DNA from: Cyanidioschyzon merolae
Taxonomy: Eukaryota
Assembly (NCBI GenBank): GCA_000091205.1
Contig: AP006502.2
Direction: 5' to 3' (one strand)
Length of the DNA: 64,000 nt
In this document: piece by piece, positions 10,829 through 31,529 of the stretch
Position numbering within the stretch: the stretch's first letter is position 1
How the letters are laid out: the number at the start of each line of letters is the position of its first letter
Notes under the pieces: generated by a model
The model's input: only the letters and a program-made list of their open reading frames with translations
The model's database searches: none
Told to the model about the DNA's origin: nothing
Made by a program: the position numbers and the translations under genes

Positions 10829-13486
10829 CTAGCTCAGCGAGCGTTCAAAATCCGGCTCTGTGGAGATGAACAGATCCATGAGGTTGCTGCCGCCAACGCC
10901 ACCGCTGCTGCTGTTGCCACAGATAGCTCTATCCCGAGTATGGTCCAGGAGAAGGCTCTCAACAGCCAGATCCTGAAGCAAGGGCGGCGACGGGCTTCGA
11001 GTGAGCGCTCCTCCGCTAACACAAGCCAACATACCACTAAAGCTACCGTCAAGCTCGTAATCTAAATGAAGCCCAGCGCCAACAGCACCTCGTCGAAATG
11101 GCGAGAAGCGTTGCACGCCGTCGATGAGCGGCGACGCGTACGGTGATGATGCTCGCCGAAGTTTAAGCGTCCCGCCCGGAGACACCGTTCCCGGGTGCAG
11201 CGTTTCTCCGCGTTCCTGTTGACGTCGAAGATTCAGCACTTCGCCATGAAAATCATCGACAGCATCCTCGCCAACGGCATGCAGGTGCTTGTACCTCGGA
11301 GGCGTAGTGTGGCCCTCTGGATCCGGAGCCCCGTACGCAACGTGCTCGGGTCGTGTCCGGTCGTCGACGTCGTCGCCCACGAAACGCGTCCGCAACGCCA
11401 CTGGTGATGCATCACGCCGCTCTGTGTTAAGTCGGGCAATACGCACGCCATGCTGACATGGAGCCGCGGACGACGCAGCGCCGGCAACTGCTGCCGATGC
11501 GACGGCGCTTGCGCTGCCGTTGCTGCGCTTTCCTGGGCCTCCCTGGCGAGCATTCGCAGCTGCTGTGTACATGAATGCTGCACTGGATTGCTCAATGGTA
11601 ACCGTCGTCGCGATGCTAGTGGCACTGCTTGCGTCAAGCGATGTCCTGATTCCTGGTTCCCGACAAACACTTCGCATGGGGAACGGTCGAATGCCGTCAT
11701 GTCCGGCCGAAGGCATCGTTGCCAACCCGCCGCCAGCCGTTGCCGCGAAGGACAAACGTGTCGGTGAGCTGCCGCTCGGTGCCATACATCGCAACGGCGA
11801 CGCCAGTTCGACAATACCATCCACCGCTTCGAGCGTGCGGCTGCTCCCGGTCGGCGATGCTGGAATGCTGAGCGGGGCTCCCGAGCCCCACGACGCGTAC
11901 GACTGCGCGGGTGCTTCGAACTCCTCGATGTCGGCACGCAGGGCCGCTTCATCGAAAGCAGAGGCCTCCACATCTGCATTGCAATCACGATTGTTCGCTA
12001 GTTGCGTATCAAACGTCAGGGCGGCTATTGGATTATGGCCCCGATCAGGCAATGCCGCCTGCAGACTGTTGTAAATCGCTGCTTCCGCTCCAAGTTTCTG
12101 TGGCGCAGCAGCCCGCCACGGGGCTGCATTTGCATCTGGCGGCACTCGGGGGTCTTTTTTGTGTGCCCGCCTGCGCAGCGCTGGTACCCAGGAGCCGTCA
12201 GCGACGTCCATGCCGTTGCGCTCTGCAACGGGCGCGCGTTCATTGCAAATCCGAGCCCGATCCGGTCCATTGCTTTGCAAAGAAAGATTCGATGTGAGCG
12301 CTGCACCTGCATGTCGTCGATGCTCTCCACCAATGCCGGCACTGAGCAGGTAACACTCGATCGCACCACCGCTCGAACGCACATGCAACTGGTAAACGAC
12401 CGCCTTGGAGGCTCGGTTTCTTGCTTTGGGATCGTCTCCCCAGAGTAACTCGGTTCCTGGGGGCGCTTGCACTGCGATAACCATGTGTTTCTGAAAAATC
12501 GACAAAGACAGAATATCTTCATCAGTCAGATAAGCATAGCGCATGACTTTCTCGGACGTACTCAAACGACGTAGATCGTCGCGCAGGATGCGAATCTGTT
12601 CATCAAGTAGACGGTCCGACTTCTCCAACTCGAGAATCTCCTCGCGCAGACGAAGGATCTCCTGGTCTGCAGCCAAGTCGACACCGCAGACAACGGCGTT
12701 TCCGTCGGTAGTGAGCCCTGCACGTTGGACGGTCGCTGTTTCGGTCTTGGCAGGTGCCTCCCCGGACGCGTCACGATTCACAGCAGCTAGTGCGGTCTTG
12801 CGGGTGCCGGGGTTCCCAGCAGCGGATTCTCCCATTCCTTTCCATCGGATGTGGTTCTTGCCTTGTTTCTCGATGATCCCGACGCCCTCAAGCACATTGG
12901 TAATGTCATATATCCGTCGCTTCTTCACACCCAAGCGTTCCGCTACTGCGTTCAAATCCAGTAAACCGTCGTCCGTTTTAAAGACTAGATCGAGAAACCG
13001 GCGCGTCAGCTTGAAGAGCGAGCAATCCTGACGACAACCGCTGCGCCGTTTCGCGACCTTGGCCCCCGACGCTCCTCCGCTGCTGGTACGCGGCGTGCGC
13101 CCCAGGTCCAGCTCGTCCTCCTGAAAACGATCGTCTGGCGAGCTACTGAGTCCATCGTTCGGGGAACGAGCCTGCAACGGAGCGTCCGCACCGCCAAGCA
13201 AGGCCGACGTTACGGGCGACGTCAAACAGGTCTCACTATCGAGCAGCGGGCGACCCAGCCAACGCTTGACGGGAGTCGTCGCCGACTCACTCAGCTCCAA
13301 GGTGCCATGACGACCAGAGCCTCCGTCGGTTTTCGAAGTAGACCGCGACTGCCGGCCGCGCGGCCTCGCCGTACTCGCGCTCGGAAGCGCATCGTCGAGG
13401 ACGGGCGAGAACTCCACACTCCCCCGAGGATAGAGCGTCGATCGCCGGCTGCGCGCCTCGGGCGTAGCGGCAGCAGATTCGCTCAT
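10829..13486 (-). CDS. E2F-family transcription factor
   Basis: 885-aa ORF. Winged-helix DNA-binding domain 'SLFKLTRRFLDLVFKTDDGLLDLNAVAERLGVKKRRIYDITNVLEGVGIIEKQGKNHIRWKG' (E2F_TDP signature RRIYDITNVLEG), followed by a leucine-zipper/coiled-coil 'LRLREEILELEKSDRLLDEQIRILRDDLRRL'. The flanks are long and low-complexity. Confidence 0.8.
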   Translation of the reverse strand: MSESAAATPEARSRRSTLYPRGSVEFSPVLDDALPSASTARPRGRQSRSTSKTDGGSGRHGTLELSESATTPVKRWLGRPLLDSETCLTSPVTSALLGGADAPLQARSPNDGLSSSPDDRFQEDELDLGRTPRTSSGGASGAKVAKRRSGCRQDCSLFKLTRRFLDLVFKTDDGLLDLNAVAERLGVKKRRIYDITNVLEGVGIIEKQGKNHIRWKGMGESAAGNPGTRKTALAAVNRDASGEAPAKTETATVQRAGLTTDGNAVVCGVDLAADQEILRLREEILELEKSDRLLDEQIRILRDDLRRLSTSEKVMRYAYLTDEDILSLSIFQKHMVIAVQAPPGTELLWGDDPKARNRASKAVVYQLHVRSSGGAIECYLLSAGIGGEHRRHAGAALTSNLSLQSNGPDRARICNERAPVAERNGMDVADGSWVPALRRRAHKKDPRVPPDANAAPWRAAAPQKLGAEAAIYNSLQAALPDRGHNPIAALTFDTQLANNRDCNADVEASAFDEAALRADIEEFEAPAQSYASWGSGAPLSIPASPTGSSRTLEAVDGIVELASPLRCMAPSGSSPTRLSFAATAGGGLATMPSAGHDGIRPFPMRSVCREPGIRTSLDASSATSIATTVTIEQSSAAFMYTAAANARQGGPGKRSNGSASAVASAAVAGAASSAAPCQHGVRIARLNTERRDASPVALRTRFVGDDVDDRTRPEHVAYGAPDPEGHTTPPRYKHLHAVGEDAVDDFHGEVLNLRRQQERGETLHPGTVSPGGTLKLRRASSPYASPLIDGVQRFSPFRRGAVGAGLHLDYELDGSFSGMLACVSGGALTRSPSPPLLQDLAVESLLLDHTRDRAICGNSSSGGVGGSNLMDLFISTEPDFERSLS

Positions 13487-13595: not shown

Positions 13596-13797
13596 CGCAC
13601 CAGGGCACTGTATCGCAGGCAGACCCTCCGTGGAGCACGCAAAATGTAACGGCCTTGCGGGAGCACGTCACACACGTGCTGCCGCCAGATGTGTACCGAG
13701 GCGGCGCTCCGACGAACGCCGCGCGCAGATCATCCGCCACCGAAGGCGGCAACGGCGATGCAGCGTATCGACGCTTCGATGCACGCATCGCCGCCAA

Positions 13798-13926
13798 TTT
13801 CCCGCGCTTTCGCTACGTGGCGCCGCGCGTCACGAGTTTCGTTACTGCAGCGGGCGAGCGGGCGCGCGTGCGCCTGCCCTACAGCGTGTGTCCGTGCTCT
13901 GGGAAGGATCGATGGCGGTTTCCCGC
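13798..13926. promoter_or_regulatory. Two TTTCCCGC motifs (E2F consensus TTTSSCGC) upstream of the E2F gene at 13486
   Basis: 'tttcccgc' occurs at 13798-13805 and 13919-13926, which is 312 and 433 bp upstream of the minus-strand E2F start codon. A third copy at 1675-1682 is not in a promoter context. An 8-mer in GC-rich DNA is only weakly significant. Confidence 0.2.
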
Positions 13927-14187
13927 TTGCTTTACGCTCGGATCATGGGATGCACGATCGCGTCGATCTTGACCGTTGATACGCGAGCAGTGCATGAACG
14001 GACACGTGTCCGCTGTATGGAGCGCTACAGAGGCACGGCGTCGATACCGATGCATGCACACTGGAATCGCGTGCGTGTGCGTGCCACCTGGCGCTGCATG
14101 CAGCGGACACGTGTTCGTTTGGGCATATCCCTACGTCATCGCCTTGGCGTTCGGCGCTGCGAGCATTCGCCCGTCGAAGGCGATGAC

Positions 14188-15972
14188 TCAGCGGTATCGC
14201 TGACGCTTCACCGGACGCATGTCCGCGAGGCAACGGTTTGGATCCAGGCTCTGGAGAGGCCCGTCACGGCGATAGGATGCCTTGCGTACCGACGCTACAG
14301 ATACCGGTGTGGTGGCCTCAATAGCGGGGACCGGGATGAGTTGCGCGGCTGCCGGTACACGGAGACGGCATTGCAGAGCAGCGCTATCACCAGTGCCGAT
14401 GTGCCTCTCTGCGCTCAGCGGCGGGTGCGAGCTCGCCCAGAATCCCGTCAAGCCACTGTTATCGCACGGGCGTAGTAGGAACCAGCGCTTCTTCGATGTC
14501 GCATGCTGATGTCCGCGTTCGTCGAGCTCCGAAGCCACAACCGTGGCCGTCTCCAGGGCGCATGTCACGGTGCTTCCGGGGCGGTAGAGAAGCTGGCGGA
14601 GGAGGTCTCGTAGTCGACAACGCAGGTTATGCAAATCATCGTCTAATTCAGAGCTGATGTTTGCAAGATCTTCCAGTTGTCTTTCGAGATGCGCGCGCTG
14701 CGCACGAGCGCCTGTCGCTGCGCTCAGCAGTCGGCTCGGGGTCAGACTTCGTAAACGAATGCGCATCGAGGGTGTTTTGTAGTTACCGCCGCGCGCTTCT
14801 CGCTCGAGAATGCCGATCGCCTCGAGCACGCTGATGACGTCGTAGATTCGACGAGGAGCTACCTTCAACGCTGTCGCTAAGCTCGAGCACGTCTGGTGCT
14901 CGGCGTACGATGCTTTTCCTTCGGCCTGCGGAGCAAACAGTCCCAGCAAATGCGCCGTCAGAAATCCAATGCTCCGCGCATAGCGACCCGAGGTACGTGG
15001 CGAGTCTGGGTGGCAATCCTCACCGGTCGCAGGACCTGATCCATGCAAATGCTGGTCATGCGGTCGCGGGTGGTACGGGTGGAAATGCTTCAGCAGAAAC
15101 GATGGATTGGTCATAAGGATTCCGATATCTATATCGGGGTGTGCAGCGTACGGGCTCGACGGCGTGTCTGCCGCCGCGGCGCTCGGCGATGCCTGTTCCG
15201 CCACGGATGCTGCAATGCACTGCCGCACCGTGAGTTGCTCGGATGCGACGTTCCTGCGGCCGAGCGTCTGCTTTTCTCGGGCCCCTGAAGCTTCGTACAA
15301 CGCATCCATCAGAGAGCGGGGTTGCAGCGGTTGGTGCTCTGTTCCACGGATTGGGCGGCGAGGTTGTGGTCGTCGTCCTGGCGATCCAGCGCTCGGCGCG
15401 TTCAGAACTGTATCGCCTCTGTCCGCAGCGAGTCGATCAATCTGCTCGGTGCACCAGCCCGGCCACTCTTTGTCGGGTGCCTGCCCCAGGCACGCTCTCA
15501 GCGTCGGTGAAAATGCCGATACGCCGAGCGGCGAACTCGACACGCCCTGCGACATACGCCGATAAGACACCGGCGTCTTCGGAATATCTGGGCTCACATA
15601 CCACAGAAAACTCTCAATGCCCCCGAATGAACACGGACTCTGGGGAACAGCCGTTGCTTGCGTCACTGGTCGGGCCGGTGCGACCGCACTGCCGCTGTCT
15701 GTGGCCTCGACAGCTCGAAAGCGACTATTCCTCGACCAGGGTATGAGGTCATGTGGTGACCACTCTGAAAGCGGCAGCCACGGCGGTGCTCCTCTGGAGG
15801 TCGGCTCGGGTGAGGCGGCCCGCGTCCGCCCAGCGGCTCCGTCAGCAAGTGCTTGGCTTGGTGTATCGGGGTGTTCCTTGGCGACGCGTTGCGCGTTGCC
15901 CGCGCTAGCCACGCGCTCGGGGAAAGCGGCCACCTCATCGCATAAGAGCGCTTTCCAGTCGATGTCGTCCAT
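14188..15972 (-). CDS. E2F-like winged-helix transcription factor (second, divergent paralogue)
   Basis: 594-aa ORF. 'RYARSIGFLTAHLLGLFAPQ...SLATALKVAPRRIYDVISVLEAIGILERE' follows the E2F DNA-binding pattern (R.DtSLG.LT..F..L....RRIYD...VLE.IGLI). A coiled-coil 'LERQLEDLANISSELDDDLHNLRCRLRDLLRQ' lies downstream. It is on the same strand as, and adjacent to, the E2F gene at 10829-13486. Confidence 0.65.
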   Translation of the reverse strand: MDDIDWKALLCDEVAAFPERVASAGNAQRVAKEHPDTPSQALADGAAGRTRAASPEPTSRGAPPWLPLSEWSPHDLIPWSRNSRFRAVEATDSGSAVAPARPVTQATAVPQSPCSFGGIESFLWYVSPDIPKTPVSYRRMSQGVSSSPLGVSAFSPTLRACLGQAPDKEWPGWCTEQIDRLAADRGDTVLNAPSAGSPGRRPQPRRPIRGTEHQPLQPRSLMDALYEASGAREKQTLGRRNVASEQLTVRQCIAASVAEQASPSAAAADTPSSPYAAHPDIDIGILMTNPSFLLKHFHPYHPRPHDQHLHGSGPATGEDCHPDSPRTSGRYARSIGFLTAHLLGLFAPQAEGKASYAEHQTCSSLATALKVAPRRIYDVISVLEAIGILEREARGGNYKTPSMRIRLRSLTPSRLLSAATGARAQRAHLERQLEDLANISSELDDDLHNLRCRLRDLLRQLLYRPGSTVTCALETATVVASELDERGHQHATSKKRWFLLRPCDNSGLTGFWASSHPPLSAERHIGTGDSAALQCRLRVPAAAQLIPVPAIEATTPVSVASVRKASYRRDGPLQSLDPNRCLADMRPVKRQRYR

Positions 15973-17427
15973 TATGAGAGCATAAACTCGAGATCAGGTG
16001 CCCAATCACATCTAGTCTCTTTAGAGCTGACCCAGTATACTCGTTGAGTGCAGCACGTGCAAGAATTGAAACCTGGTGGCGGGAAAAATGTCGAGTTGGC
16101 GAGTGGCGCCGAGTGCGGCGTACCACGTGCTGCCGGTCGAAGCGATGGCATCTTGAGTTGTCCTTTAGGTTCACGTTTGAGCAAAAACTACTCGATGCCA
16201 TCCGCAGGCCCTTCGCCAGCTGCAGCTCAGCGTTGGCATCCTGCGTTTCATACGAGCAGTAGGATCCTGCTATGGCTGGGGCTCAGCGTCGGGGAATTAG
16301 CGGATGTTTTGTCGAGCAAGGCTCTCTGGTACGTAGCAGCGACCTGTAAGCGGTGCTATGACGGGTTGCTCGTGCCAGGAGCGGCCGTGATCGGTTCGTA
16401 CTCCCGAAATAAAATGCCGTGTCAGATTACTACAGAATAGGAGCTTCTCGCAAAGTTCTTACCTTTCGATACTGCTTGAACATTTGTTGAGATTTAGTAC
16501 TTCGACAACCCAGGTATAGCTATAAGGGCTTATAGATTCGTGAGTCGTTTCGGGATTATCGGTTGGGGTGTCGGCGTGGCGCCTTTAGCGATTTGCAGCT
16601 GGAGTTCCTTAGGTTATTGGAAACAAGATGATTCGCGATGCCTGCGAACACGCGCACTTACAATAACCGATGTCATTGACCAGTGCACTCGTGCAAGTTT
16701 TCATGCTTTCCCTTTGGATACCGTGGAGCAGGCGCACATCACGCAATCCTCGGTTTTCCCGATCTTTGTTTCTTGAGGGAGCTCGTGCGCGCAGCAACTT
16801 GCACAGCTGGACTGGCGATGAACAATATTCGACGGTGTCATTTGTCGACTTGTTGACAAGTTCATGCCGAAACACCACTGAAATTTTCACGTCAAATAAT
16901 CCGTTTTGTTCAAAAGACGAGTCCTGCTCTCTTTCTAGCCATCGACGTAACCGCATTCGATACCACCAGCAGCAGCAGCAGCATGATACCTGTCAGGGGA
17001 TGTGCTCCCAGATGCGTCCATTTCATCTCTTTCCATGGAAAAGAATATTTGACTCGGCATTCTGTCATTGCGACGATGGCCTAGTTTCGACAGATTGTCA
17101 TCACTTTGCACGAGGTGAGCGTAGATGGATCGAAATTTTTCGACTTGTTCCCAAGCATAGATCATACTTCCCATGCTTGGCGCATGATGATAAACATCGC
17201 TTGCCACAAATCCTTTATCGAATCGTGCAGCGTGCGCCTCTACGTGTCGCAAGCAGCATATTCGCCACGGACGTTGCCCGGAAGAGGCCCGTAATTGTAG
17301 CGTATGGCACCGGGCGTAGAAACTGAGCAGGGCTTGCACGGGAGCCCTCAGAATCCGTCAAGGGCATGAACGGAACGTTAACGAAATTCTTTCCTCGCGA
17401 CAGGAGTCCTTCGAATGAGAGATTGTA

Positions 17428-20282: not shown

Positions 20283-21222
20283 ATGAACACCAGCAGCAAC
20301 AGCAGCAGCAGCAGCATCAAGGCGAAGTGCACCTGACTGGGGCGATGCGCTGCGACCCCGAGCACCGCATCGTCGGTGACTGGGTCCTTGACGCAGAGCG
20401 ACGCAAGCATACGAACTGTTAGCATCCGGGGAGGGAGCGCTCTGTTTGTCAATACGTGGGCGCAAGTATGTTGTTCCGTTGCAAATGGACAGGGAACGGG
20501 TTAAGGGCACACAATAGAAACACAGCTAAAGGGCTCGAACCATTTGTGTGGTTCCTTGGCAACGCCAGGGACTCGAGGTTCAGCACAAGTGACGCTTGCG
20601 CTCGTTGCCAATCAGTTCACCGACCGGGACTGGGTATCTCGGGGGACCCTCAAAGCGCCCCAGTAACCGGCAGACTCGACGCGACGTATCGGGATCGTAA
20701 AAGACTCGCAACCGGGAACGCGTATACAGTACACTCGCCCGAACCGCTGGACGTTGATTCCGATCTTTTTTTCACCCGTACGCCAACATAGTTCCGCGCA
20801 AGTTTCTACAGCGTTTCTCATGGCACCAAAGTTTTCAAAGCACGGCTCCTGGCGAGGTTTCCGCAAAACACAACTGCAGGCCGTCGAAAGGTGGCAGGGC
20901 GACAGAGACCTGTTGCCTTTCGGGTGCCAGCATACCGTGCTTCATATACCTGCCATGAAACCTGTAGAGCCTCTTGGTCAGATACGGGTCCCATACGCCC
21001 GTCCAGCTCCGCATGTAACAATAATCAGAACACGAATCGTGTATCTGTTTAGCGAACGCAGAAAAGCAATGCAAAAACGCATCGCATCGCTGCCGCTGCC
21101 AAGCCAAATCTCCAACAGTACCGCCCGGGTACGGAGTTCAGGTCGCTGTACTCGAGGCAACACTGCCGAGCGGGTCTGCGCTCTCTACGAAAACCAACAA
21201 CCCATTCATCCGCTACGCGAAT

Positions 21223-23031
21223 GTGCTGAACCAGTACGCGTTAGAGATAACGTGTTTCATGCGGCCTTTCGGTTCCGTTCGTCTTTGGCGAGGAGCTGCT
21301 GCGTTCCCGCTAGCCGCGTGGTTGCCAGCGTTCGCTACACGGCGGCTAGCTTCGTCACAGTCGCGAAACCTTGCCGAGCCTCCCAAACAACCCGTTAACG
21401 CTAACCAGGTCTTACAGAATGAATATGAACGTTTAATGGTACTGGCAGAGCAAGGAGGCGGACCCAGTGCCCGCAAGCGTCACCAGGCACGGGGCAAGCT
21501 ACTGGTGCGGGAGCGCCTCGCTGCGCTGCTCGACCCGGGCTCGCCGTTCCTCGAGCTGAGCGCTCTCGCTGGAGCTGGCGACTACGTGTATGCAGGTGCC
21601 CCGGATGACGACAGCGAGACGAAAATGCCGCCAGGAGCAGGACTCTTAACCGGTATAGGTCTCGTAGCCGAACGCTGGTGCATGATCATTGCGAACGACG
21701 CAACGGTTAAAGGCGGTACCTACTTTCCGCTGACGGTGAAGAAGCACCTTCGTGCACAAGAAATCGCTGCGGAAAATCGTTTGCCCTGTATCTATCTAGC
21801 AGACTCGGGTGGTGCCTATCTCCCGTTGCAGCATCGAGTTTTCCCCGATCGTGATCACTTTGGTCGAATCTTTTACAATCAAGCTCGAATGAGTCGGGAT
21901 GGCATCCTGCAGATCGCAGCAGTGCTCGGCAGCTGCACTGCTGGCGGTGCATACGTTCCAGCCATGTCCGATGAGGCGATCATGGTGCACGGCACGGGGA
22001 CGATTTTCCTGGGAGGACCTCCGCTCGTGAAGGCGGCTATCGGCGAGGACGTGTCCGCGGAGGAACTCGGTGGAGCGCTGGTACACACCCAGCAGAGCGG
22101 TGTCGCCGATCATCTCGTGGAGAACGACGCTGAGGCGCTGCTGCGAGTGCGAGCAGCGGTGAAGCGGCGAGCGCTGCCAGCGCGCCAGGCCTCTACCAGC
22201 CCCCTGATGGAGTCCTTTCCGGCACCGCGAGCGTCGATAGGGGATCTAGAGCGTACCCTCGTTGGGGAAAACCCTCGAGCTGACGAATCAAGCGCCCGTC
22301 TTATCGGTGGAGCTGGTGCTGGTGGTCTGGATATGTATCAACTGATCGCATGCCTGGTGGACGGCTCCGTCTTTGATGAATTCAAGGCGCAATACGGAAC
22401 AACGCTGGTAACTGGCTTTGCGAGCATCTATGGTCAACAGGTGGGCCTTGTCGGGAATCAGGGGGTGCTCGTGAGTGATGCGGCGAAGAAAGGGACGCAT
22501 TTCATCCAGTTATGCGAGCAGCAGGGTATCCCGCTTGTATTTCTACAAAACATCAGCGGTTTCATGGTTGGAAAGCAGGCCGAGTGGGGCGGTATCGCCA
22601 AGGACGGCGCCAAAATGGTCAATGCCGTAGCGTGTGTTCGCGTTCCGAAGATCACCGTCATTGTTGGTTCCAGCTACGGAGCCGGCAATTACGGTATGTG
22701 TGGGCGTGCGTATGGGCCTCGTTTCCTTTTCACTTGGCCCAGTGCCCGAATTGGAGTCATGGGCAGCGAGCAGGCCGCTAACGTTCTCCGTCAGGTGCAG
22801 GGGGGGCGTTCCGATCCGGCGGCGGAGGCAGGTATCAACGCCCTAACCAAGCGCTACGCGTTCGAGAACAGTGCCTGGTTTGCAACAGCGAACCTCTGGG
22901 ACGACGGTGTCGTTTTACCACGCGACACACGGCAGGTCCTGGGCATTGCACTGCGAGTCGTGGAGTCGGCATCTGAAACGGAAACCTCAGTAACTGCACA
23001 ACGGGGTCGCTACGGCGTCTTCCGCATGTAA
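21223..23031 (+). CDS. MCCC2: 3-methylcrotonyl-CoA carboxylase beta subunit (carboxyltransferase)
   Basis: 602-aa ORF, near-colinear with MCCC2 as recalled: '[22 protein letters not shown]', '[49 protein letters not shown]', '[18 protein letters not shown]', '[16 protein letters not shown]', '[22 protein letters not shown]'. The N-terminus '[17 protein letters not shown]...ATRRLASS' is Arg-rich, consistent with a mitochondrial presequence. Confidence 0.9.
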
Positions 23032-23860
23032 ACCCTTGGCCTCGTAGTGGCACGAATCCTGTCCCCGGAGGCGCCTTGTCGCGTCGTGGGTCAGCGCCCA
23101 TCCGCTGCTCTCCATGGCATAGAATCGATGCTGAGAGCCGGATTATCGCCGAGTTCGCGAACGCTGCTGGTTATCGAGGCACCCATCGCAAGAGTCTTCC
23201 GGGAAGGCTACTGCATTCCACCGCCTCCAGTGCAGTGTTTTCGCATAGAAGCGAACTTGCATCGATCATCCCCGTGACCCTCTTACGCCAACGAGAAAGC
23301 GCACATGCATATGAATGCGGATGTGCCTACGGGGAGCATCGGCAACATCCAGCTAGCCGATACCTCTCTTCGAGTCATTTGCTTGATGATCGTCGACCAA
23401 GGAGCGGGGAAACCACCACCATGATGTGGTATGCGGGAGACGCTCACGCGAATCCAGTGCCCCGGAGAGCGTTTGCCAACTATTGCGGTGCACCAGCAGT
23501 GATTGCCACCCGGAAATAGCGCTTCGCTCTGTGACTTGCGTGCAGTGCGCGAACCTAAGCTCTTCGTTTCTGAATCATGAGCACTACTTTTCGCACCAGT
23601 CGTTACAGCGCGCTTGCAGACGACAGCACCGCATTCGAAGCATCACTTTACCGGGTTTTTCGTCGAAAGCATGCATCCAGCAGTTGTCGTATCTCGCGAG
23701 AAGATTCACCAGGGCGCCTCGCACATATCAGGGTACGATACCACGGCAGTTTTTCACGCTTTACATTCGCATATATTCGAGGTTTTATCTGGCCGGTGTC
23801 AAGTCTGGTTATCGCCGGTCCACTTGGGAGACGTCCAGCGCATTCGTGCTTGCGCTCTGC

Positions 23861-25762
23861 TCACTTGGTTGCATGCGATGCCTCGTAGAGTTCACGCCCG
23901 ATCAATATCCGGCGAATCTCGCTCGTCCCTGCCCCGATTTCATAGAGTTTCGCATCTCGCAACAGCCGACCCGTTGGGTAATCCGAGATGTACCCGTTTC
24001 CACCGAGCGCTTGGATAGCTTGCAATGCACACTGCGTTGCACGCTCCGCATTCTGGAGAATCACAGAAGCGCAGTCCTTGCGAAAGCGACGCAGCTGGGG
24101 ATTCAGGCCGCCGTGCTTGCTGCTCGCAGGAGGCGTAGGCTCGCCTATTTGCCTCGTGAGTTTGTCCACCGATGCCGCAACGCCAAAGGTATGCGCCCGA
24201 CTCGCTGCTAATGCCCCGTACATATCCGCAAGCTTTGCTTGCATCAATGGAAAGGTGCCAATGGGGCTACCGAATTGTTGACGTTCACGAACGTACGGCA
24301 AAACGACATCCAAACAGGCCTGCATAATACCGAGCGGTCCTGCGCTCAGCACCAACCGCTCTGCATCCAAACCGGCCATGAGAACAGTGGTGCCAAGGCC
24401 GGGCTCACCAAGGACCGCGTCATCCGGCACCCAGACGTCATCGAAGACGAGTTCGCAGGTATTACTCCCGCGCATACCCAACTTGTCTAGTTTCTGTGCA
24501 ACGCGATATCGCGGACCCAGCTGCGCCGTCTCCAGCACAAACGCCGTGAGTTTCGGCTTGCTCTGCTTGGGTAGCGACGAACTCGAAGCGCTCTCCACCG
24601 CCGCCAGTGTCGATGTCGATGCGGAGTGCGACTCCAGCTCCGGGGTTCGCGCATACACCACGACTACATCGGCATCGGGGCCGTTCGTAATCCACATTTT
24701 CGTTCCCCGAATACTCCATCCTGAACGCAACTCTCCGGCGGCAGTAGTACGCTTGCGCTGATAAGCGCTCGTTCGCATGGAGCCAAGGACATCAGAGCCA
24801 GCGCCTGTTTCGCTCATGGCTAGCGCACCGACCCAGACGCCGCTGCACAGAGGCGGCAAAAGTCGCTCCTTCTGAGCAGCGCTACCATGTCGCTCTATCT
24901 GCATCATACAGAGATTCGAATGCGCTCCATAGGAGAGCCCGATACTCGGTGATGCTCGACTTAGCTCTTCCATGACGAGACAATGCTCGACGAGGCCTAA
25001 ACCGAGTCCGCCATAGGCGTTTGCAGTCGCCACACCGAGCACACCAAGGTTGCCCAGTTCTGTCCAGAGTTGCTCACGTGGAAAGCGGTTTGCTTCGTCG
25101 ATAGCGGCAGCGTAGGGTGCAATGTACTCGTGCGCGAAAGCACGAACGGTGTTCCGTAGTCCCGAGCGATCCGAGTCCAGCACGGTGCCGAGGAGAACCT
25201 CGTCGGCATGCGTATGCCGCCCGTCGTAGTAAGTGGGTCCAGGGGCGGTCCACCAAGCGCTGGTGGACGGTGCGCTCGCCGAGTGTGCCGAAGCGGGTCC
25301 CGCTGACGCGACAGTGCTTTGCGGCGGTAGCGACGATGATGATGATGAGGATGATGATGAGGATGATACCTCGCGTCGAAAGCGCTTCCCTGGCGACAAG
25401 ACCCCCGTTCGTTCACGGTTCCGCTGCAGCCCAGACGGCAACGGCACCTCGAGTCGCGTCACTGAAGCAACTGCACCCACTTGTTCACGTTTTAGCGCAT
25501 GCTCCACCGTACAATACCCGTGCTGGCGAGAGAAAACGCGCAGCGGTGTCCGCGCGTCCGGGCACACCTCAGTGTAGCGTTCGCGAGACTCAAAGCGCCA
25601 CTCGCTCCCCGTCCTATGGTCTGCAATGCAGCCGCAGACACAGTCACCGGGATACCACTTGCGTGCGTGGTGGTAGCAGCACCGCCACCAGAGCCGCGAA
25701 AGCACGTCACTGTGCTTGGGGGCTTCACGAAAGCCAAACGCTCGGCCAAGCCAAAGCATCAC
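23861..25762 (-). CDS. IVD: Isovaleryl-CoA dehydrogenase (acyl-CoA dehydrogenase family) with a long N-terminal extension
   Basis: 633-aa ORF. From about residue 190 it is colinear with IVD: 'QLWTELGNLGVLGV', 'LVMEELSRASPSIGLSYGAHSNLC', 'GALAMSETGAGSDV', 'MWITNGPDADVVVVYA', 'LDKLGMRGSNTCELVFDD', 'RLLRDAKLYEIGAGTSEIRR'. Two low-complexity inserts are visible, including poly-Ser. The roughly 190-aa N-terminal extension contains a run 'SSSSSSSSSSSS'. Confidence 0.9.
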   Translation of the reverse strand: MMLWLGRAFGFREAPKHSDVLSRLWWRCCYHHARKWYPGDCVCGCIADHRTGSEWRFESRERYTEVCPDARTPLRVFSRQHGYCTVEHALKREQVGAVASVTRLEVPLPSGLQRNRERTGVLSPGKRFRREVSSSSSSSSSSSSLPPQSTVASAGPASAHSASAPSTSAWWTAPGPTYYDGRHTHADEVLLGTVLDSDRSGLRNTVRAFAHEYIAPYAAAIDEANRFPREQLWTELGNLGVLGVATANAYGGLGLGLVEHCLVMEELSRASPSIGLSYGAHSNLCMMQIERHGSAAQKERLLPPLCSGVWVGALAMSETGAGSDVLGSMRTSAYQRKRTTAAGELRSGWSIRGTKMWITNGPDADVVVVYARTPELESHSASTSTLAAVESASSSSLPKQSKPKLTAFVLETAQLGPRYRVAQKLDKLGMRGSNTCELVFDDVWVPDDAVLGEPGLGTTVLMAGLDAERLVLSAGPLGIMQACLDVVLPYVRERQQFGSPIGTFPLMQAKLADMYGALAASRAHTFGVAASVDKLTRQIGEPTPPASSKHGGLNPQLRRFRKDCASVILQNAERATQCALQAIQALGGNGYISDYPTGRLLRDAKLYEIGAGTSEIRRILIGRELYEASHATK

Positions 25763-26166
25763 AAAGCCAAAAGCCTTTCCACGTCACAAGCCCGCAAACC
25801 TGTACACACGAAACACCTGTTCAGTCACACACTGGGAGTCAACGACGCTTCCAGGGCACTGCACACGAACACACACCCTAGACGAGCAGGCGGGTACGGG
25901 TGCTTGCGGTTGTCCAGGGCGTCGCTGGGCGCTGAACGTGCCAGCGCAGGCAAGGCCGTTTCTGCCAGGCCAGATACAGGAAATCGCGGCATCGATCTCC
26001 CGCGTATGCCCCGTCGAATCGACAGGCAGGAGAAAGCACGCCTTGTTCGACAAGCGAGGTCCCTTAGGCGTGTACCGACACGCGCACACTGGATACGTAC
26101 TCGTAAAGGCCTTGGAGTGGTCGTGTTTGAAAGCTCCTGGAGCGGGGAACCACAAGTCGGCGTGGT
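25763..26166. promoter_or_regulatory. Roughly 400-bp divergent intergenic region between IVD (minus) and MCCA (plus); putative shared bidirectional promoter
   Basis: The start codons of the two ORFs face away from each other across 404 bp. The promoter call is an inference from gene arrangement only. Confidence 0.3.
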
Positions 26167-28920
26167 ATGAACTCGGCAGCAATAGCACTTGACGCTGTTT
26201 TTATAGCGAACCGAGGCGATGCCGCACTCCGAGTCATTCGTACGGCGAAACGACTTGGACTCGTGACAGCGGTAGCTTGCACTCGCGCTGAACTCGTGCG
26301 ACCCACAGCAGCGGTCGACGCTGCCGACTACGCTGTGGAACTCGACGGGGCACTGCCCGCCGCTGGTCCAGCCACAGCGCCCTACGTCGACGTGGAACGC
26401 GTCGTACTGGCAGCGGAACGCTTCCGAGAGCGACTCCTGGAACGTAAACCTGATGCTCGCAAGTCGGTATCCGCTCTGCAGGTGGCGGTGCATCCAGGCT
26501 GGGGGTTTCTTTCGGAGCGCTCCGACTTTGCGAACGCTGTGCTGGAGCGCGGCTTCCGGTGGTGCGGGCCGTCGGCACACGCCATGCAGGCCATGGGCGA
26601 GAAGGTGTCTGCGCGGGAGACCATGTCCAAGGCGGCGGTACCTGTGGTGCCCGGCCTGCGTCTCGCTCAGGTAGCGTCGCAGTCAACGGAGGTGCAACGC
26701 CTCGGAGAGATGCTCGTAAGCCAGGTCGGCTTTCCGCTCATCCTCAAACCTGTTTACGGCGGCGGTGGCAAAGGCATGCGCGTTGTACGACATCCCAGCG
26801 AGCTGCCGCGTGCGCTGCAGGCCGCTCGCCGCGAAGCACGTATCGCATGTGGCGATGATACGCTCCTGGCGGAGCGATACCTCGAATCTGTTCGCCACAT
26901 TGAATTTCAGATATTCGGAGGCTATCGGGATGGAGCCTACGAAGCCGTGCATCTTTACGAACGCGACTGCTCTGTGCAGCGACGTCATCAGAAGATCGTG
27001 GAGGAGTCACCGGCCCCTGGTCTGCCGGTCGCTACCCGCGAAAAAATGGCCCAGTGTGCGGTGCGAGCCGCCCGGGCCGTCGCCTACGAGGGCGCTGGCA
27101 CCGTCGAGTTCCTCTATGATCCCGTCCGGGAGGATTTCTTCTTCATGGAGATGAATACGCGCCTGCAGGTAGAGCATCCGGTCACCGAGATGATCGTGCG
27201 CACCAGGCCCCTGAACGTCGGCACGCTCCAGAACAGCAGAAGGACGCTGGACGGGAGCCCCGGAGACCGGTCGGAGGCCGCCCCAGTGGACCTTGTCGAG
27301 TGGCAGTTTCGCGTTGCTGCTGGCGAGCCGCTCCCAGTTGCCAGTCAGGATGCGCTCTCGATTCGTGAACCAGCACATGCGATGGAGTTGCGTGTGTACG
27401 CTGAAACACCCGATGAACAGGGCAACTGGCTGCCCCAGCAAGGCCGTCTGGAGCGGTTCGCGATCGACGGTCTCGATATCGAACAGCACATGCCAACGGA
27501 TACGCTTCGTGTTGATGCAGGTATCCGCACCGGGGACGAAGTCTCTATCGAGTTCGATCCGATGATTGCGAAAATCATTGTGTGTGAACCGGAACGCCCC
27601 CAGAGCATTTCAGCGTTGCAACGGCTGCTCGAATCGAGTCAAATATGGGGTGTTTCGACGAATGTTCCTTTTTTGCAGGCTTTACTCGCCGACGAAGAGT
27701 TCCTGCATGGAGTAGGTGGACGTGGTCACGGTGTTCCGGTTACCTGGTTGGAGCACCGCTTGCCGTTGCTGCTATCGCGTACCGTCTCCGCGGGTGCAGT
27801 GCGGTCGGAAACCGCACCGCCGGGGACGCGATCGGTGTTGGAAACATCCAGCACGCTGCAAGGCGCCTCTTTGGAGACATATGCATCTGCACGAGAGACG
27901 CAGAAGCGTCCCGATGAACAGGGATGTCCTCTGGACCTCGAGAGTCGTGGCGACGGGAGCGATGTCGCCCGACTTGCCTCGTCTGCAGTGCCGGTGTGGA
28001 GAGCGCTGGCGGCAACCGCCTGGGCTGCTACCGAGCCCTACTGGCTGCTGAGTCGACCTTTCGGCGGCTTTCGTAATGATGGACGCGGCAATCGATTCGA
28101 ATGGTACCTGGAGTACCCGGTGCTGCAGCAGATGCAGCAGCGAGCACCATTGCAGCGACCTACAAACGAGTCGATGCTTCCGTCGTTCTACCGAGCGCTG
28201 CTTCGACTGGGGCGTGCACCCGCTACCGTTTGTTTCTTTCCGAGCGCTGCGGATGCTGCGCCCCGAACCGGCCTGGAAAATCACCCCGAGCGCGATGATC
28301 TTCTCGACTGGGTAGTGGAAATACAACAGGTCTGGCCGGCTGCCTCAGAGTCAGCTGTTGTGCCTTTGACGCTCTATCCGGATGAACGACTCGCGATCGA
28401 CGGTGTGGTCGCTCCGGTTGACGCGTATTGTGTGGAGGCGCCTTTGGAAGCGACCGATCATGAAGAGCTAGCCCCGCAGTGGTGCTTTCGCCTCGCGGAC
28501 GGGACAATTGTTCGCGTCCATACACCGCTCTCTTTCGCGCTGTGGCGTCTCGGGAGGCGGGAACTTACCAGCACCAGCACCAGCACCAGCGCCAGCACCA
28601 GAGTAGCACAAGCGGAGACCGGGTTGCATCGCCGTCCGGCAGGCAAAGCCGCTGTCGAGTCGCTCCCGGGTCAGGTGCTGAGTCCCATGCCCGGTCGACT
28701 CCTGGAACTCCTCGTGCAGAAGGGCCAAATGGTGCATCACGGGGAGCCACTCGCTATTCTCGAAGCCATGAAAATGGAGCATACGGTTCGAGCACCCATG
28801 GATGGCGTCGTGACTCGTGTCACAGAGCTTCCGTGTGGTGCTTATATGCCCGCTGGTACGTTTCTCTGCATGCTGCGGGATCTGCGGAAGGAGCCTTCTG
28901 AACAAGCAGACAAGGTTTGA
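26167..28920 (+). CDS. MCCC1: 3-methylcrotonyl-CoA carboxylase alpha subunit (biotin carboxylase plus biotin-carboxyl-carrier domain)
   Basis: 917-aa ORF. Biotin-carboxylase hallmarks: 'IANRGDAALRVIRTAKRLG', 'LILKPVYGGGGKGMRVV', 'HLYERDCSVQRRHQKIVEESPAPG', 'EMNTRLQVEHPVTEM', 'DPMIAKIIV'. A C-terminal biotinyl-lysine motif 'ILEAMKMEHTV' is present. Inserts relative to MCCC1 include 'RTRPLNVGTLQNSRRTLDGSPGDRSEAAP' and a 'TSTSTSASTR' tract. Confidence 0.9.
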   Translation: MNSAAIALDAVFIANRGDAALRVIRTAKRLGLVTAVACTRAELVRPTAAVDAADYAVELDGALPAAGPATAPYVDVERVVLAAERFRERLLERKPDARKSVSALQVAVHPGWGFLSERSDFANAVLERGFRWCGPSAHAMQAMGEKVSARETMSKAAVPVVPGLRLAQVASQSTEVQRLGEMLVSQVGFPLILKPVYGGGGKGMRVVRHPSELPRALQAARREARIACGDDTLLAERYLESVRHIEFQIFGGYRDGAYEAVHLYERDCSVQRRHQKIVEESPAPGLPVATREKMAQCAVRAARAVAYEGAGTVEFLYDPVREDFFFMEMNTRLQVEHPVTEMIVRTRPLNVGTLQNSRRTLDGSPGDRSEAAPVDLVEWQFRVAAGEPLPVASQDALSIREPAHAMELRVYAETPDEQGNWLPQQGRLERFAIDGLDIEQHMPTDTLRVDAGIRTGDEVSIEFDPMIAKIIVCEPERPQSISALQRLLESSQIWGVSTNVPFLQALLADEEFLHGVGGRGHGVPVTWLEHRLPLLLSRTVSAGAVRSETAPPGTRSVLETSSTLQGASLETYASARETQKRPDEQGCPLDLESRGDGSDVARLASSAVPVWRALAATAWAATEPYWLLSRPFGGFRNDGRGNRFEWYLEYPVLQQMQQRAPLQRPTNESMLPSFYRALLRLGRAPATVCFFPSAADAAPRTGLENHPERDDLLDWVVEIQQVWPAASESAVVPLTLYPDERLAIDGVVAPVDAYCVEAPLEATDHEELAPQWCFRLADGTIVRVHTPLSFALWRLGRRELTSTSTSTSASTRVAQAETGLHRRPAGKAAVESLPGQVLSPMPGRLLELLVQKGQMVHHGEPLAILEAMKMEHTVRAPMDGVVTRVTELPCGAYMPAGTFLCMLRDLRKEPSEQADKV

Positions 28921-29089
28921 ATCATCTCTTGCGGAGCACTGGACCTATTTTGGTAGCGATAGCGCGACGTGAACTTGTGCTTTGGCTGCTTGCTGCAGCT
29001 GCATTCGTTACGGGCTGTGCACAGCGGCAGATGCCTTCGAGAAACGTATGGCGCACGGTAATGAAACCTGAGCGCACTGCAACATACCC

Positions 29090-29975
29090 GGAGCTGCTTG
29101 TAGAGCGTACAGCCACTGCAGCAGCTGGTTGATCCGGAGAAAACAGTTTCCAGTTGCATTGCGGATTGCAGGGCGCTGCATCCATCGCAGGGAAGAGTGA
29201 AATGGGGTTCCCTCGGCTGACTCGGGGACACACGTATTCGTAAGGTTAGGGTCTTTTTCACTAGCCATTAGACTGAGCCTACACGCGCTTTTTCTTCAGT
29301 GACTGCTCCCTTTTCCTCTCTGTTTTGAATCAGGATTTACGCGTGCCGGTCTCCGATGTCCATCAAGGTCCGTTGTCAGCCGTAGAACGGTATTCACGGG
29401 AGTGTTCGGGTCCCGGTAGCGCCGCTTTCGGCTGTTGTCGACGCATTTCACTCACAGGAGGTAGTTGCCATCTAGGCTACGCTTGCCATGTTCACCTTTT
29501 TTATGGACAGCCTCGGGGCGCGCTTCGCACCCGTGACACTTGTGCATGCTCGGGTTGGCGCTTACGTTCATAAGACCCCTCGCTTCCAAGGGCCGTTCCG
29601 TGAAGTGCGAGCGCTTCCCTCGCCACGCTTTCATGGTCCTTGACGAGTGCAGAACATTCCGCTCCATACTCTGTATTGTTCCCGCGCCTGATGCCGTACC
29701 CTACCGTCACGGGCTTCTTCTTGGCGTTGTCGTCTGCATGGGGGCTCTCCGCTGGATTGCCCGCACACGCTGTACAGTTCGATAGAAGATCTGTTGAACG
29801 CGAGCGTGTTCATCATAGAACGAGTATCCCAAGGAACATCCAGACAGGAGCCCAAGTCGATAAATTCCAAATTGTCTACACTTCTTTCATGCAAAGCGAT
29901 GATGAACGCTCGACTCGAGGTTATCGCTGCGATGACTACATTCCGATTCAACGATCCCTTTCCATGCAGATACAA
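29090..29975 (-). pseudogene. Decayed TnpB/Fanzor-like remnant (copy R29), internally deleted
   Basis: Minus-strand ORF 29631-29975 translates to 'SLNRNVVIAAITSSRAFIIALHERSVDN...SSIELYSVCG'. This aligns with copy A's N-terminal region 'SLNKHLTVNLERFMIRAVFALYPGIS...EIELVHEKTSC'. At nucleotide level it is about 70 percent identical, in inverted orientation, to 49400-49580 (copy D). ORF 29008-29268 (minus) holds a possible degenerate 'IRNATGNCF' relic of the NATINIF motif. It lies in an AT-richer island between MCCA and AUH. Confidence 0.35.
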
Positions 29976-30485
29976 CAGAATAGACGAAAGCTTTAGCGAG
30001 CATGTCCCGTGCCGCGATCCACCATGTCGTCAAAGATCGTTTCTTCGATGACCATAAAGAGAAGAGTAAGAGTGTCCCACACGTAATATATTATTTGACG
30101 TGAAACGTTTCTTATGGTCTCTGCTTCAGCTTGTGAACGAGTCGACAACGGACCAGGTCGACTTACTTTTCCGATCCAAGCTCCGGGCGCGTAACGCTTC
30201 GCCCCGCGAGTCGCCTTGAAACAGAAAGACAAAAAACCTGACGCATGCGTGATATGGGTATGCTGTAGGCGAGTACGGAAGGCGGGAGCCTAGAGGCTCG
30301 AACGTTTGAATTTGAAAACGATGCTGGTTATTTCACCAGCCATTGGTCGAGGGCACCGCGACTCACGTTGATTCTGTTACTTGATGAATCCCAGCAGCAA
30401 AGAGTCTACGGAGCCAGCCCCGAAAACATGACCAAGTATCCTGAAATGACGTTTGAGTCCGTAATCTCCTGATGCTGCACTTGGA

Positions 30486-31529
30486 ATGTCGAGCTTGTCA
30501 TTCTGTAAACAAAAGTTTCGAAGAAAAATCTCAGGATTCGACCAAAACGCGTATCTCGTAATTCCGTGGCAATCTGCCACGTCAAGAAGGTGCCTCGTTT
30601 CACTGGACTCCGCAGGAAGCGGTTGCTTTCAACCGCGCCCTAGCAACGGGATGCGACCTCTCACTCGTTTGGCTCGGTTTTGGCACAGAGGCTTCTGCGA
30701 GAAACGAACCTCACTGGTGCTTTGGAATGAACCCATAGAGCGTACCGTTGTCTTGACCCTGAACCGGCCGGAACGAGCAAACGCGCTTAGCGCCGAACTT
30801 GTCGAAGAGCTCAGAACGCACCTGCACCGCGTGCTCGAGCTGGCCTCTGCTCGTCCGGTGCGGTGTGTGATGCTTATTCTGGCATCAGCGCATGAACGCA
30901 TATTCTCTGCTGGTGCGGACTTGAAGCAACGAGCAGCCCAGAGCCCTGACCAGCAGCGCGACTTTACGCGAAGACTGCGCGAAACGCTGCAAAGCCTCGC
31001 AAAGTTGCCGTGCTTCACTGCTGCAGCGCTCCGTGGTGGTGCCTACGGAGGTGGACTCGAACTTGCCCTCGCGTGCGACTTTCGAATCGTTCAGGAGGGC
31101 GCGATCCTGGCACTTCCAGAAACTGGACTAGGAATTTTACCGGGAGCGGGCGGCACCCAACGACTTCCGCGACTCATAGGCGTTTCTCGGGCGAAGGAAG
31201 TCATCCTTCTGGGCCGTCGACTTGACGCCCGACAGGCACACCACTACGGACTCGTTAATGTGGTCGTTCCAGATGCCGATGCGGGAACAGCGGCAACGGA
31301 CAACACCCTGGAGGAAGCGCTGCAACTGGCTGCTTCTCTGCGGGAGCGCAGTCCGATGGCGCTCCAGTTGGCGAAACGAGCGATCGATGAGGGTATAGAT
31401 GCGAGTTCACTCGCCCGCGGTCTAGCGATCGAGGACAGCTGTTATGCGGAGACGTTTGGAACCAAGGATCGAGCAGAGGGTCTGCAAGCGTTTGTTGAAA
31501 AACGATCTCCGCGGTTTACCGGTGAATAA
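30486..31529 (+). CDS. AUH: Methylglutaconyl-CoA hydratase (enoyl-CoA hydratase/crotonase family, AUH-like)
   Basis: 347-aa ORF. The crotonase fold is colinear with AUH: 'IFSAGADLKQRA', 'AAALRGGAYGGGLELALACDFRI', 'ETGLGILPGAGGTQRLPRLIG', and C-terminal 'KDRAEGLQAFVEKRSPRFTGE' (AUH ends ...[21 protein letters not shown]). An N-terminal extension of about 80 aa is present. Confidence 0.85.
   Translation: MSSLSFCKQKFRRKISGFDQNAYLVIPWQSATSRRCLVSLDSAGSGCFQPRPSNGMRPLTRLARFWHRGFCEKRTSLVLWNEPIERTVVLTLNRPERANALSAELVEELRTHLHRVLELASARPVRCVMLILASAHERIFSAGADLKQRAAQSPDQQRDFTRRLRETLQSLAKLPCFTAAALRGGAYGGGLELALACDFRIVQEGAILALPETGLGILPGAGGTQRLPRLIGVSRAKEVILLGRRLDARQAHHYGLVNVVVPDADAGTAATDNTLEEALQLAASLRERSPMALQLAKRAIDEGIDASSLARGLAIEDSCYAETFGTKDRAEGLQAFVEKRSPRFTGE

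Follow-up and report, generated by a model that had tools for sequence, protein, structure and literature searches.

Genes of leucine catabolism have been found side by side in bacteria and in fungi. The liuRABCDE operon of Pseudomonas, like the yng-type operons, strings together co-directional leucine-isovalerate genes, including a lyase and a regulator. A leucine cluster in the fungus Aspergillus nidulans is reportedly inducible and co-regulated, and among eukaryotes other than fungi and plants, gene clusters for primary metabolism are, to our knowledge, uncommon. The reason why such clusters form is debated, the explanations being co-regulation, linkage of co-adapted alleles and avoidance of toxic intermediates. 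The fungal cluster consists of mccB (AN4687), ivdA (AN4688) and mccA (AN4690), in an order read from the locus numbers (PMC4117967); a literature search for AN4689 found nothing. The red alga Cyanidioschyzon merolae and its relative Galdieria carry nitrate-assimilation gene clusters, which provide a precedent for pathway clustering in the C. merolae genome. Here we describe a leucine-catabolism locus on the 1.62-Mb nuclear chromosome 20 of C. merolae 10D, in a stretch of 64,000 nucleotides (contig AP006502.2; hereafter the window), where four long, intron-free open reading frames (ORFs) of this pathway adjoin one another.

The four genes are CMT071C, encoding the beta (carboxyltransferase) subunit of 3-methylcrotonyl-CoA carboxylase (MCC; gene MCCB, 21259..23031, plus strand, 590 aa with an Arg-rich N-terminal presequence); CMT072C, encoding isovaleryl-CoA dehydrogenase (IVD, 23861..25759, minus strand, 632 aa as annotated); CMT073C, encoding the MCC alpha subunit with its biotin carboxylase and biotin carboxyl carrier protein (BCCP) parts (MCCA, 26167..28920, plus strand, 917 aa); and CMT074C, encoding an AUH-type enoyl-CoA hydratase, a putative 3-methylglutaconyl-CoA hydratase (AUH, 30486..31529, plus strand, 347 aa as annotated). 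A preliminary description of this DNA had the ORFs and their domains in the right places but started MCCB and IVD at upstream GTG codons; the annotated starts are the ATGs at 21259 and 25759. It had also spoken of alternating strands; the order is in fact +,-,+,+ from MCCB to AUH, with spacers of 0.4-1.7 kb. The protein accessions run in series, from BAM83090 (MCCB) through BAM83092 (MCCA) to BAM83093 (AUH): the MCCA and AUH proteins match BAM83092.1 and BAM83093.1 exactly, and MCCB sits in the 90%-identity cluster of BAM83090.1, whose representative shares 99% identity with the MCCB of the window. Neither this series nor a tRNA scan and Rfam show any extra gene, so that the earlier statement that no gene is interleaved stands. 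The setting is that of a eukaryotic nuclear chromosome, as had been proposed, with genes for Oxa1, an ABC transporter, E2F, DP, a SAP-domain protein, DegP, OTU and others flanking the cluster. The locus has the adjacency of a eukaryotic metabolic gene cluster: four consecutive genes, belonging to four folds, cover three consecutive reactions. With about 4775 genes, which we take to be the C. merolae gene count, the probability that four named genes are consecutive is about 2.2e-10, which is negligible even if thousands of pathway segments are allowed for. The clustering reported in the preliminary description is therefore real and lies beyond chance.

Compared with the A. nidulans cluster, the algal one is likewise eukaryotic and nuclear and has IVD, MCCA and MCCB as separate transcription units in the same unoriented order, MCCB-IVD-MCCA, which bears out the parallel drawn earlier. 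It differs in adding an AUH-type hydratase, absent from the fungal cluster as far as established, and in belonging to a photosynthetic red alga, inducibility being known for the fungus. The liu and yng operons also place genes for IVD, both MCC subunits and methylglutaconyl-CoA hydratase side by side. Unlike them, however, the algal genes lie on strands +,-,+,+ with long spacers, without a 3-hydroxy-3-methylglutaryl-CoA (HMG-CoA) lyase or regulator gene in the window; three of the products (MCCA, MCCB and IVD) are targeted to mitochondria, the IVD is of eukaryotic type, and the closest bacterial MCCB loci have another layout. The algal nitrate-assimilation clusters resemble the leucine cluster in that genes for a single primary-metabolic pathway lie together in the compact nuclear genome of an alga. 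They differ in being found widely, in having been studied in depth and in having a documented regulation by nitrogen; they also serve assimilation, whereas the leucine cluster is catabolic. In the main texts that could be searched the leucine cluster is not described, and only Mori et al. 2016 names CMT072C and CMT074C, without linking them. The loci and functions listed in that study (CMT071C as MCCB, 590 aa; CMT072C as IVD, 632 aa; CMT073C as MCCA, 917 aa; CMT074C as ECH, 347 aa) mean that the gene identities are already public, and our result is incremental in that the genes and their functions were annotated before. It is as a cluster that the locus is apparently undescribed, and as such it fits among the eukaryotic primary-metabolism gene clusters.

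Enzyme identities were assessed from Pfam domains, from bit scores against PDB structures of the named enzyme and of its paralogues, and from active-site residues. MCCB carries a Carboxyl_trans domain (E=9e-133) and scores 579 bits against human and 568 bits against Pseudomonas MCC beta, compared with 389 bits for geranyl-CoA carboxylase beta and about 243 bits for the beta subunit of propionyl-CoA carboxylase (PCC). For MCCA, where the domains Biotin_carb_N, CPSase_L_D2 and Biotin_carb_C are followed by a C-terminal Biotin_lipoyl domain with the biotinylation motif EAMKM, the scores are 357 (human), 348 (kinetoplastid) and 343 bits (Pseudomonas) against MCC alpha and 316 bits against PCC alpha. 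On these sequence grounds the two ORFs are assigned to 3-methylcrotonyl-CoA carboxylase (EC 6.4.1.4). CMT072C has the N, M and C domains of Acyl-CoA_dh and scores 391-435 bits against IVD structures and 210 bits against short-chain acyl-CoA dehydrogenase (ACAD). IVD uses Glu254, on helix G, as its catalytic base, and Gly374/Ala375 occupy the position of the catalytic Glu of medium-chain ACAD (1IVH, human mature numbering). Aligned to 1ivh_A, the algal protein retains Glu254 (LDAERLV) as well as Gly374/Ala375 (YEIGAGTSE), and we assign it to IVD (EC 1.3.8.4) by these residues and scores.

CMT074C has the crotonase fold (ECH_1, E=3.5e-57) and both catalytic glutamates, in GGGLE and PETG motifs, and scores 195 bits against human AUH, 209 bits against an uncharacterised Bacillus hydratase and about 130 bits against ECHS1. 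The sources of many close homologues give methylglutaconyl-CoA hydratase as the name; among NCBIfam models, generic enoyl-CoA hydratases alone were matched, all below their cut-offs. We regard it as a putative AUH/3-methylglutaconyl-CoA hydratase (EC 4.2.1.18). The preliminary description had pointed to two ways in which the assignments could fail, namely that the carboxyltransferase is a PCC or the hydratase a generic enoyl-CoA hydratase. Neither reassignment was seen: each of the four named enzymes outscores PCC, short-chain ACAD or ECHS1, and a PCC (CMN243C/CMM132C) is present separately in the genome, as is a second, mitochondrial enoyl-CoA hydratase, CMK139C (Mori et al. 2016). With these separate genes present, the cluster enzymes are not the generic ones of the cell, and reassignment is ruled out by the PDB scores together with the separate PCC.

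In GFP fusions, MCCA, MCCB and IVD all went to the mitochondrion, the first 45 aa of MCCA being enough for import (Mori et al. 2016). The Arg-rich presequences claimed earlier are borne out for MCCB, but MCCA has none: in C. merolae its biotin-carboxylase domain begins at about residue 8, and an in-frame stop lies 12 codons upstream. The MCCA proteins of Cyanidiococcus, Cyanidium and the assembly GCA_041825655.1 begin at matching residues, and the extension is missing from all four cyanidiophytes. According to the same published GFP assay (Mori et al. 2016), the N-terminus of the mature biotin carboxylase itself carries import. The inserts that had been reported are present, with a poly-Ser run in the long N-terminal extension of IVD, whose ACAD core starts at about residue 195, and a TSTSTS run among the long lineage-specific inserts of MCCA. 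Inserts between the biotin carboxylase and BCCP domains make MCCA some 200-250 residues longer than the human and bacterial enzymes. Identity between C. merolae and Cyanidium is 43% for MCCA (26167-28920 against 13689-16187 of the Cyanidium locus L002), 63% for MCCB and 64% for IVD, and MCC alpha evolves much faster than its partner MCC beta.

The order MCCB(+) IVD(-) MCCA(+) AUH(+) is the same in the related hot-spring algae Cyanidiococcus yangmingshanensis and Cyanidium caldarium and, as far as its contig reaches, in GCA_041825655.1. Relative to C. merolae, the block SAP-MCCB-IVD-MCCA-AUH is intact in Cyanidium but inverted with respect to the E2F/DP pair, with the breakpoint at the AUH edge. 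Synteny, which had been proposed as a check on the cluster, thus holds in three related assemblies but not around the IVD of Galdieria: in Galdieria yellowstonensis, MCCA, MCCB and AUH are all absent within 10 kb of IVD. We consider it probable that the locus is a nuclear catabolic neighbourhood in which eukaryotic genes of mitochondrial type were joined by rearrangement and then kept together by collinear genomes. CMT071C-074C would form four separate single-gene transcription units, whose products would together carry isovaleryl-CoA through to HMG-CoA in the mitochondrion. All four genes would most likely be of ordinary eukaryotic (mitochondrial-type) descent, and genome rearrangement most likely joined them in an ancestor shared by Cyanidium, Cyanidiococcus and Cyanidioschyzon, the alternative being that Galdieria broke up an older cluster; in the three genera, whose genomes are very collinear, the cluster would have been preserved thereafter. 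Its role might be coordinated expression, through the shared divergent promoter of IVD and MCCA and a common chromatin domain, or else linkage of a pathway with harmful acyl-CoA intermediates.

Several observations weigh against this neighbourhood or against a function for it. No HMG-CoA lyase is nearby: in agreement with the preliminary description, no HMG-CoA lyase, BCKDH or BCAT domain was found among ORFs of at least 200 aa in the window. Conservation in three genera says little on selection, since it is the default expectation where 86% of genes are collinear among Cyanidium, Cyanidiococcus and Cyanidioschyzon, with little synteny to Galdieria (Cho et al. 2023). The identifiers CMT071C-074C were not found in the C. 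merolae omics papers that were covered, and a survey for shared promoter elements gave nothing convincing beyond a weak, post hoc pair of 10-mers. In a bootstrapped neighbour-joining tree (such trees were built for IVD, AUH and MCCB), the Cyanidiales MCCB joined eukaryotes with a bootstrap value of 44, which fell to 8 with broader sampling; the 50%-identity representatives of this protein were mostly fused or fragmentary, and named fungal and animal sequences were added. Finally, CMT074C was reported to be plastid-targeted on the basis of the first 98 residues of the long gene model (Mori et al. 2016), a location that, if real, would set it apart from IVD and the two MCC subunits. Codons 1-55 of the annotated gene (30486-30650) are unconserved in Cyanidiococcus and Cyanidium, where similarity begins at residue 63-74, and the Cyanidiococcus AUH has an in-frame stop 22 codons before its ATG, which lies a few residues ahead of the point where similarity to C. 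merolae starts (about residue 63, a little beyond Met56). Given this unconserved N-terminus, the true start of CMT074C may be Met56 (30651), giving a protein of 292 aa, and the reported plastid targeting may be artefactual.

IVD and MCCA are divergently transcribed across 407 bp (25760..26166), a presumed bidirectional promoter, and this would be the simplest route to coordinating the first two steps of the pathway. Each of the four cyanidiophyte loci has these two genes in divergent orientation, although sequence conservation of the spacer is poor, with 47% column identity in an alignment of the spacers. The motif survey combined k-mer sharing over 11 promoter regions, this spacer alignment and a repeat search. 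It brought up two exact 10-mers, ACTCGAGGTT and ACGTTGATTC, each with two copies in the window and these solely upstream of MCCB (20571 and 20751, respectively, in the promoter-side spacer 20283..21258) and upstream of AUH (29913 and 30365, respectively, in the MCCA-AUH spacer). In Cyanidiococcus the two stand side by side 110-128 bp before the AUH start (locus L001, 18509-18536), and copies with one mismatch occur in two other cluster promoters (L001, 14475; GCA_041825655.1, locus L003, 9426); neither was found in Cyanidium. A shuffle test, applied post hoc, gave about 4% for the pair. Being post hoc and absent from Cyanidium, the pair is kept as a candidate lead only, a possible shared cis-element. 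As a separate observation, the 8-mer GCCAGATA/TATCTGGC occurs at matching places in three species, in the IVD-MCCA divergent spacer and in the convergent 3' spacer between MCCB and IVD (23032..23860, 829 bp), at 25969 and 23786 of the window, at 14413, 11650 and 9462 of L001, and at 14739 and 12339 of L003.

Co-regulation of the four genes is a plausible candidate reading, and we entertain, more tentatively than the neighbourhood as such, a selected and co-regulated cluster that arose by new assembly of vertically inherited genes of mitochondrial type in the Cyanidium-Cyanidioschyzon ancestor and that would act through the IVD/MCCA promoter and possibly ACTCGAGGTT/ACGTTGATTC. Leucine-catabolism clustering would then have arisen independently three times, in bacteria, in fungi and here, and no amino-acid-catabolic cluster would have been described from an alga before this one. 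C. merolae is genetically tractable and nearly intron-free and performs homologous recombination, which means that the cluster could be broken apart experimentally, and its clustered genes, set beside the unclustered ones of its relative Galdieria, offer a clean natural comparison. The main value of the locus would lie here, as a tractable test case for why metabolic clusters form.

The matching unoriented order mccB-ivdA-mccA in A. nidulans raises the possibility that both clusters are relics of an ancient eukaryotic or endosymbiont-derived arrangement, kept in cyanidiophytes and some fungi and lost by most lineages. We find this unlikely, as the order of three genes would match by accident one time in three and the arrangement was not found in the other lineages covered. 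Besides Galdieria, Balamuthia lacks MCCA, MCCB and AUH within 10 kb of its IVD. A cyanidiophyte-like Logan contig, whose IVD is sister to that of Cyanidiales, has an IF-2B family gene, not MCCA, 5' of IVD. No partner genes adjoin the MCCB of Ustilago, and the Arabidopsis genes for IVD, MCCA and MCCB lie, by their locus identifiers, on chromosomes 3, 1 and 4.

Still more doubtful is a neutral rearrangement of no functional consequence, whose products stayed adjacent only as these genomes rarely rearrange. The collinearity of about 86% of genes among the three genera, the unconserved promoter sequences and the lack of a strong shared motif are what such an accident would leave behind; against it stand the chance value for four specified pathway genes (P ~2e-10), which is far below 1e-5 even after a generous correction for the number of pathways, and the independent clustering of the same enzymes in bacteria and fungi.

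The preliminary description had also suggested a domesticated bacterial liu locus, for which a single donor lineage shared by the genes was to be sought. Outside Cyanidiales, the IVD matches begin with two Galdieria species and continue with Proteobacteria, among which Balamuthia and one more EukProt sequence are scattered; in the tree, the Cyanidiales IVD falls into a clade of all sampled eukaryotic or eukaryote-length sequences (bootstrap 68). AUH matches are Bacillota mixed with land plants, and the tree places the Cyanidiales with a plant-containing clade at successive nodes of 32, 50 and 76, that is, with weak to moderate support. The best 120 MCCB matches outside Cyanidiales are all bacterial, chiefly Chloroflexota, Streptomyces and Burkholderiales, the highest-scoring ones at 57-61% identity, and for MCCA the best PDB matches are eukaryotic MCC alpha structures, by a small margin. 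Each gene thus has its own nearest bacterial relatives, namely Chloroflexota, Streptomyces and Burkholderiales in the case of MCCB, Proteobacteria in that of IVD and Bacillota in that of AUH, which is not the pattern of a single operon transfer. We also surveyed gene layout around the bacterial MCCB genes closest to the algal one, at 80 loci. MCCB and MCCA are co-directional, in that order, in 77 of these loci; their ACAD neighbours are just 29-34% identical to the algal IVD, against 55-59% for true bacterial IVDs; an AUH-like gene occurs in one locus, and the algal layout in none. GC content at third codon positions (GC3) is 0.598 for the four genes and 0.603 +/- 0.024 for neighbouring genes. 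The main text of a survey of horizontal gene transfer in Cyanidiales does not mention methylcrotonyl, isovaleryl, enoyl-CoA, carboxyl transferase or acyl-CoA dehydrogenase.

The least probable of the readings, and an unlikely one, is hence that a bacterial liu-type operon moved en bloc into a cyanidiophyte ancestor and gained eukaryotic promoters and targeting, with one gene inverted: the operon encoding of these enzymes in bacteria, the bacterial MCCB matches and the share of about 1% of horizontally acquired genes in Cyanidiophyceae speak for it, but the grouping of IVD with eukaryotes that include Galdieria, where the gene is unclustered, the weak placement of AUH with plants, the changing bacterial relatives, the different bacterial layouts, the native GC3, the silence of the transfer survey and the lack in the window of any liuE or liuR equivalent all speak against it. 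Assembly of the cluster from vertically inherited genes is most likely.

Between MCCA and AUH, the preliminary description had placed a decayed TnpB relic, of which no trace was seen. A six-frame Pfam scan of this spacer (28921..30485) at E<=10 returned no TnpB/OrfB match, its sole hit being a coronavirus spike domain at a meaningless E=0.64, and neither tblastn nor blastn detected similarity to the same spacer of related cyanidiophytes. The spacer also holds no Rfam family and no tRNA. It is just 286 bp long in Cyanidium, and spacers of 1.5-1.7 kb are ordinary within the window. A TnpB or Fanzor relic is rejected, there being no RuvC-like or zinc-ribbon similarity in any frame; we regard the segment as intergenic and unconserved.

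In the Cyanidiococcus assembly GCA_013995675.1, MCCB and IVD each align as two pieces in different frames (L001, 9555-11353 and 12511-13867), and the MCCB is split into two gene models; these breaks are likely to be assembly frameshifts rather than signs of pseudogenes. Elsewhere in the window, the E2F gene (10829-13486, minus strand), with winged-helix and CC-MB domains, adjoins a DP-like gene (14188-15972, minus strand) with the E2F_TDP domain only. Their products would be heterodimer partners, and in Cyanidiococcus, Cyanidium and GCA_041825655.1 the two genes are neighbours as well. Further along, a 1264-aa ORF (57578-61372, minus strand) combines phosphoglucomutase/phosphoacetylglucosamine-mutase domains with a MobA-like nucleotidyltransferase domain and may be a fusion of consecutive steps of nucleotide-sugar synthesis.

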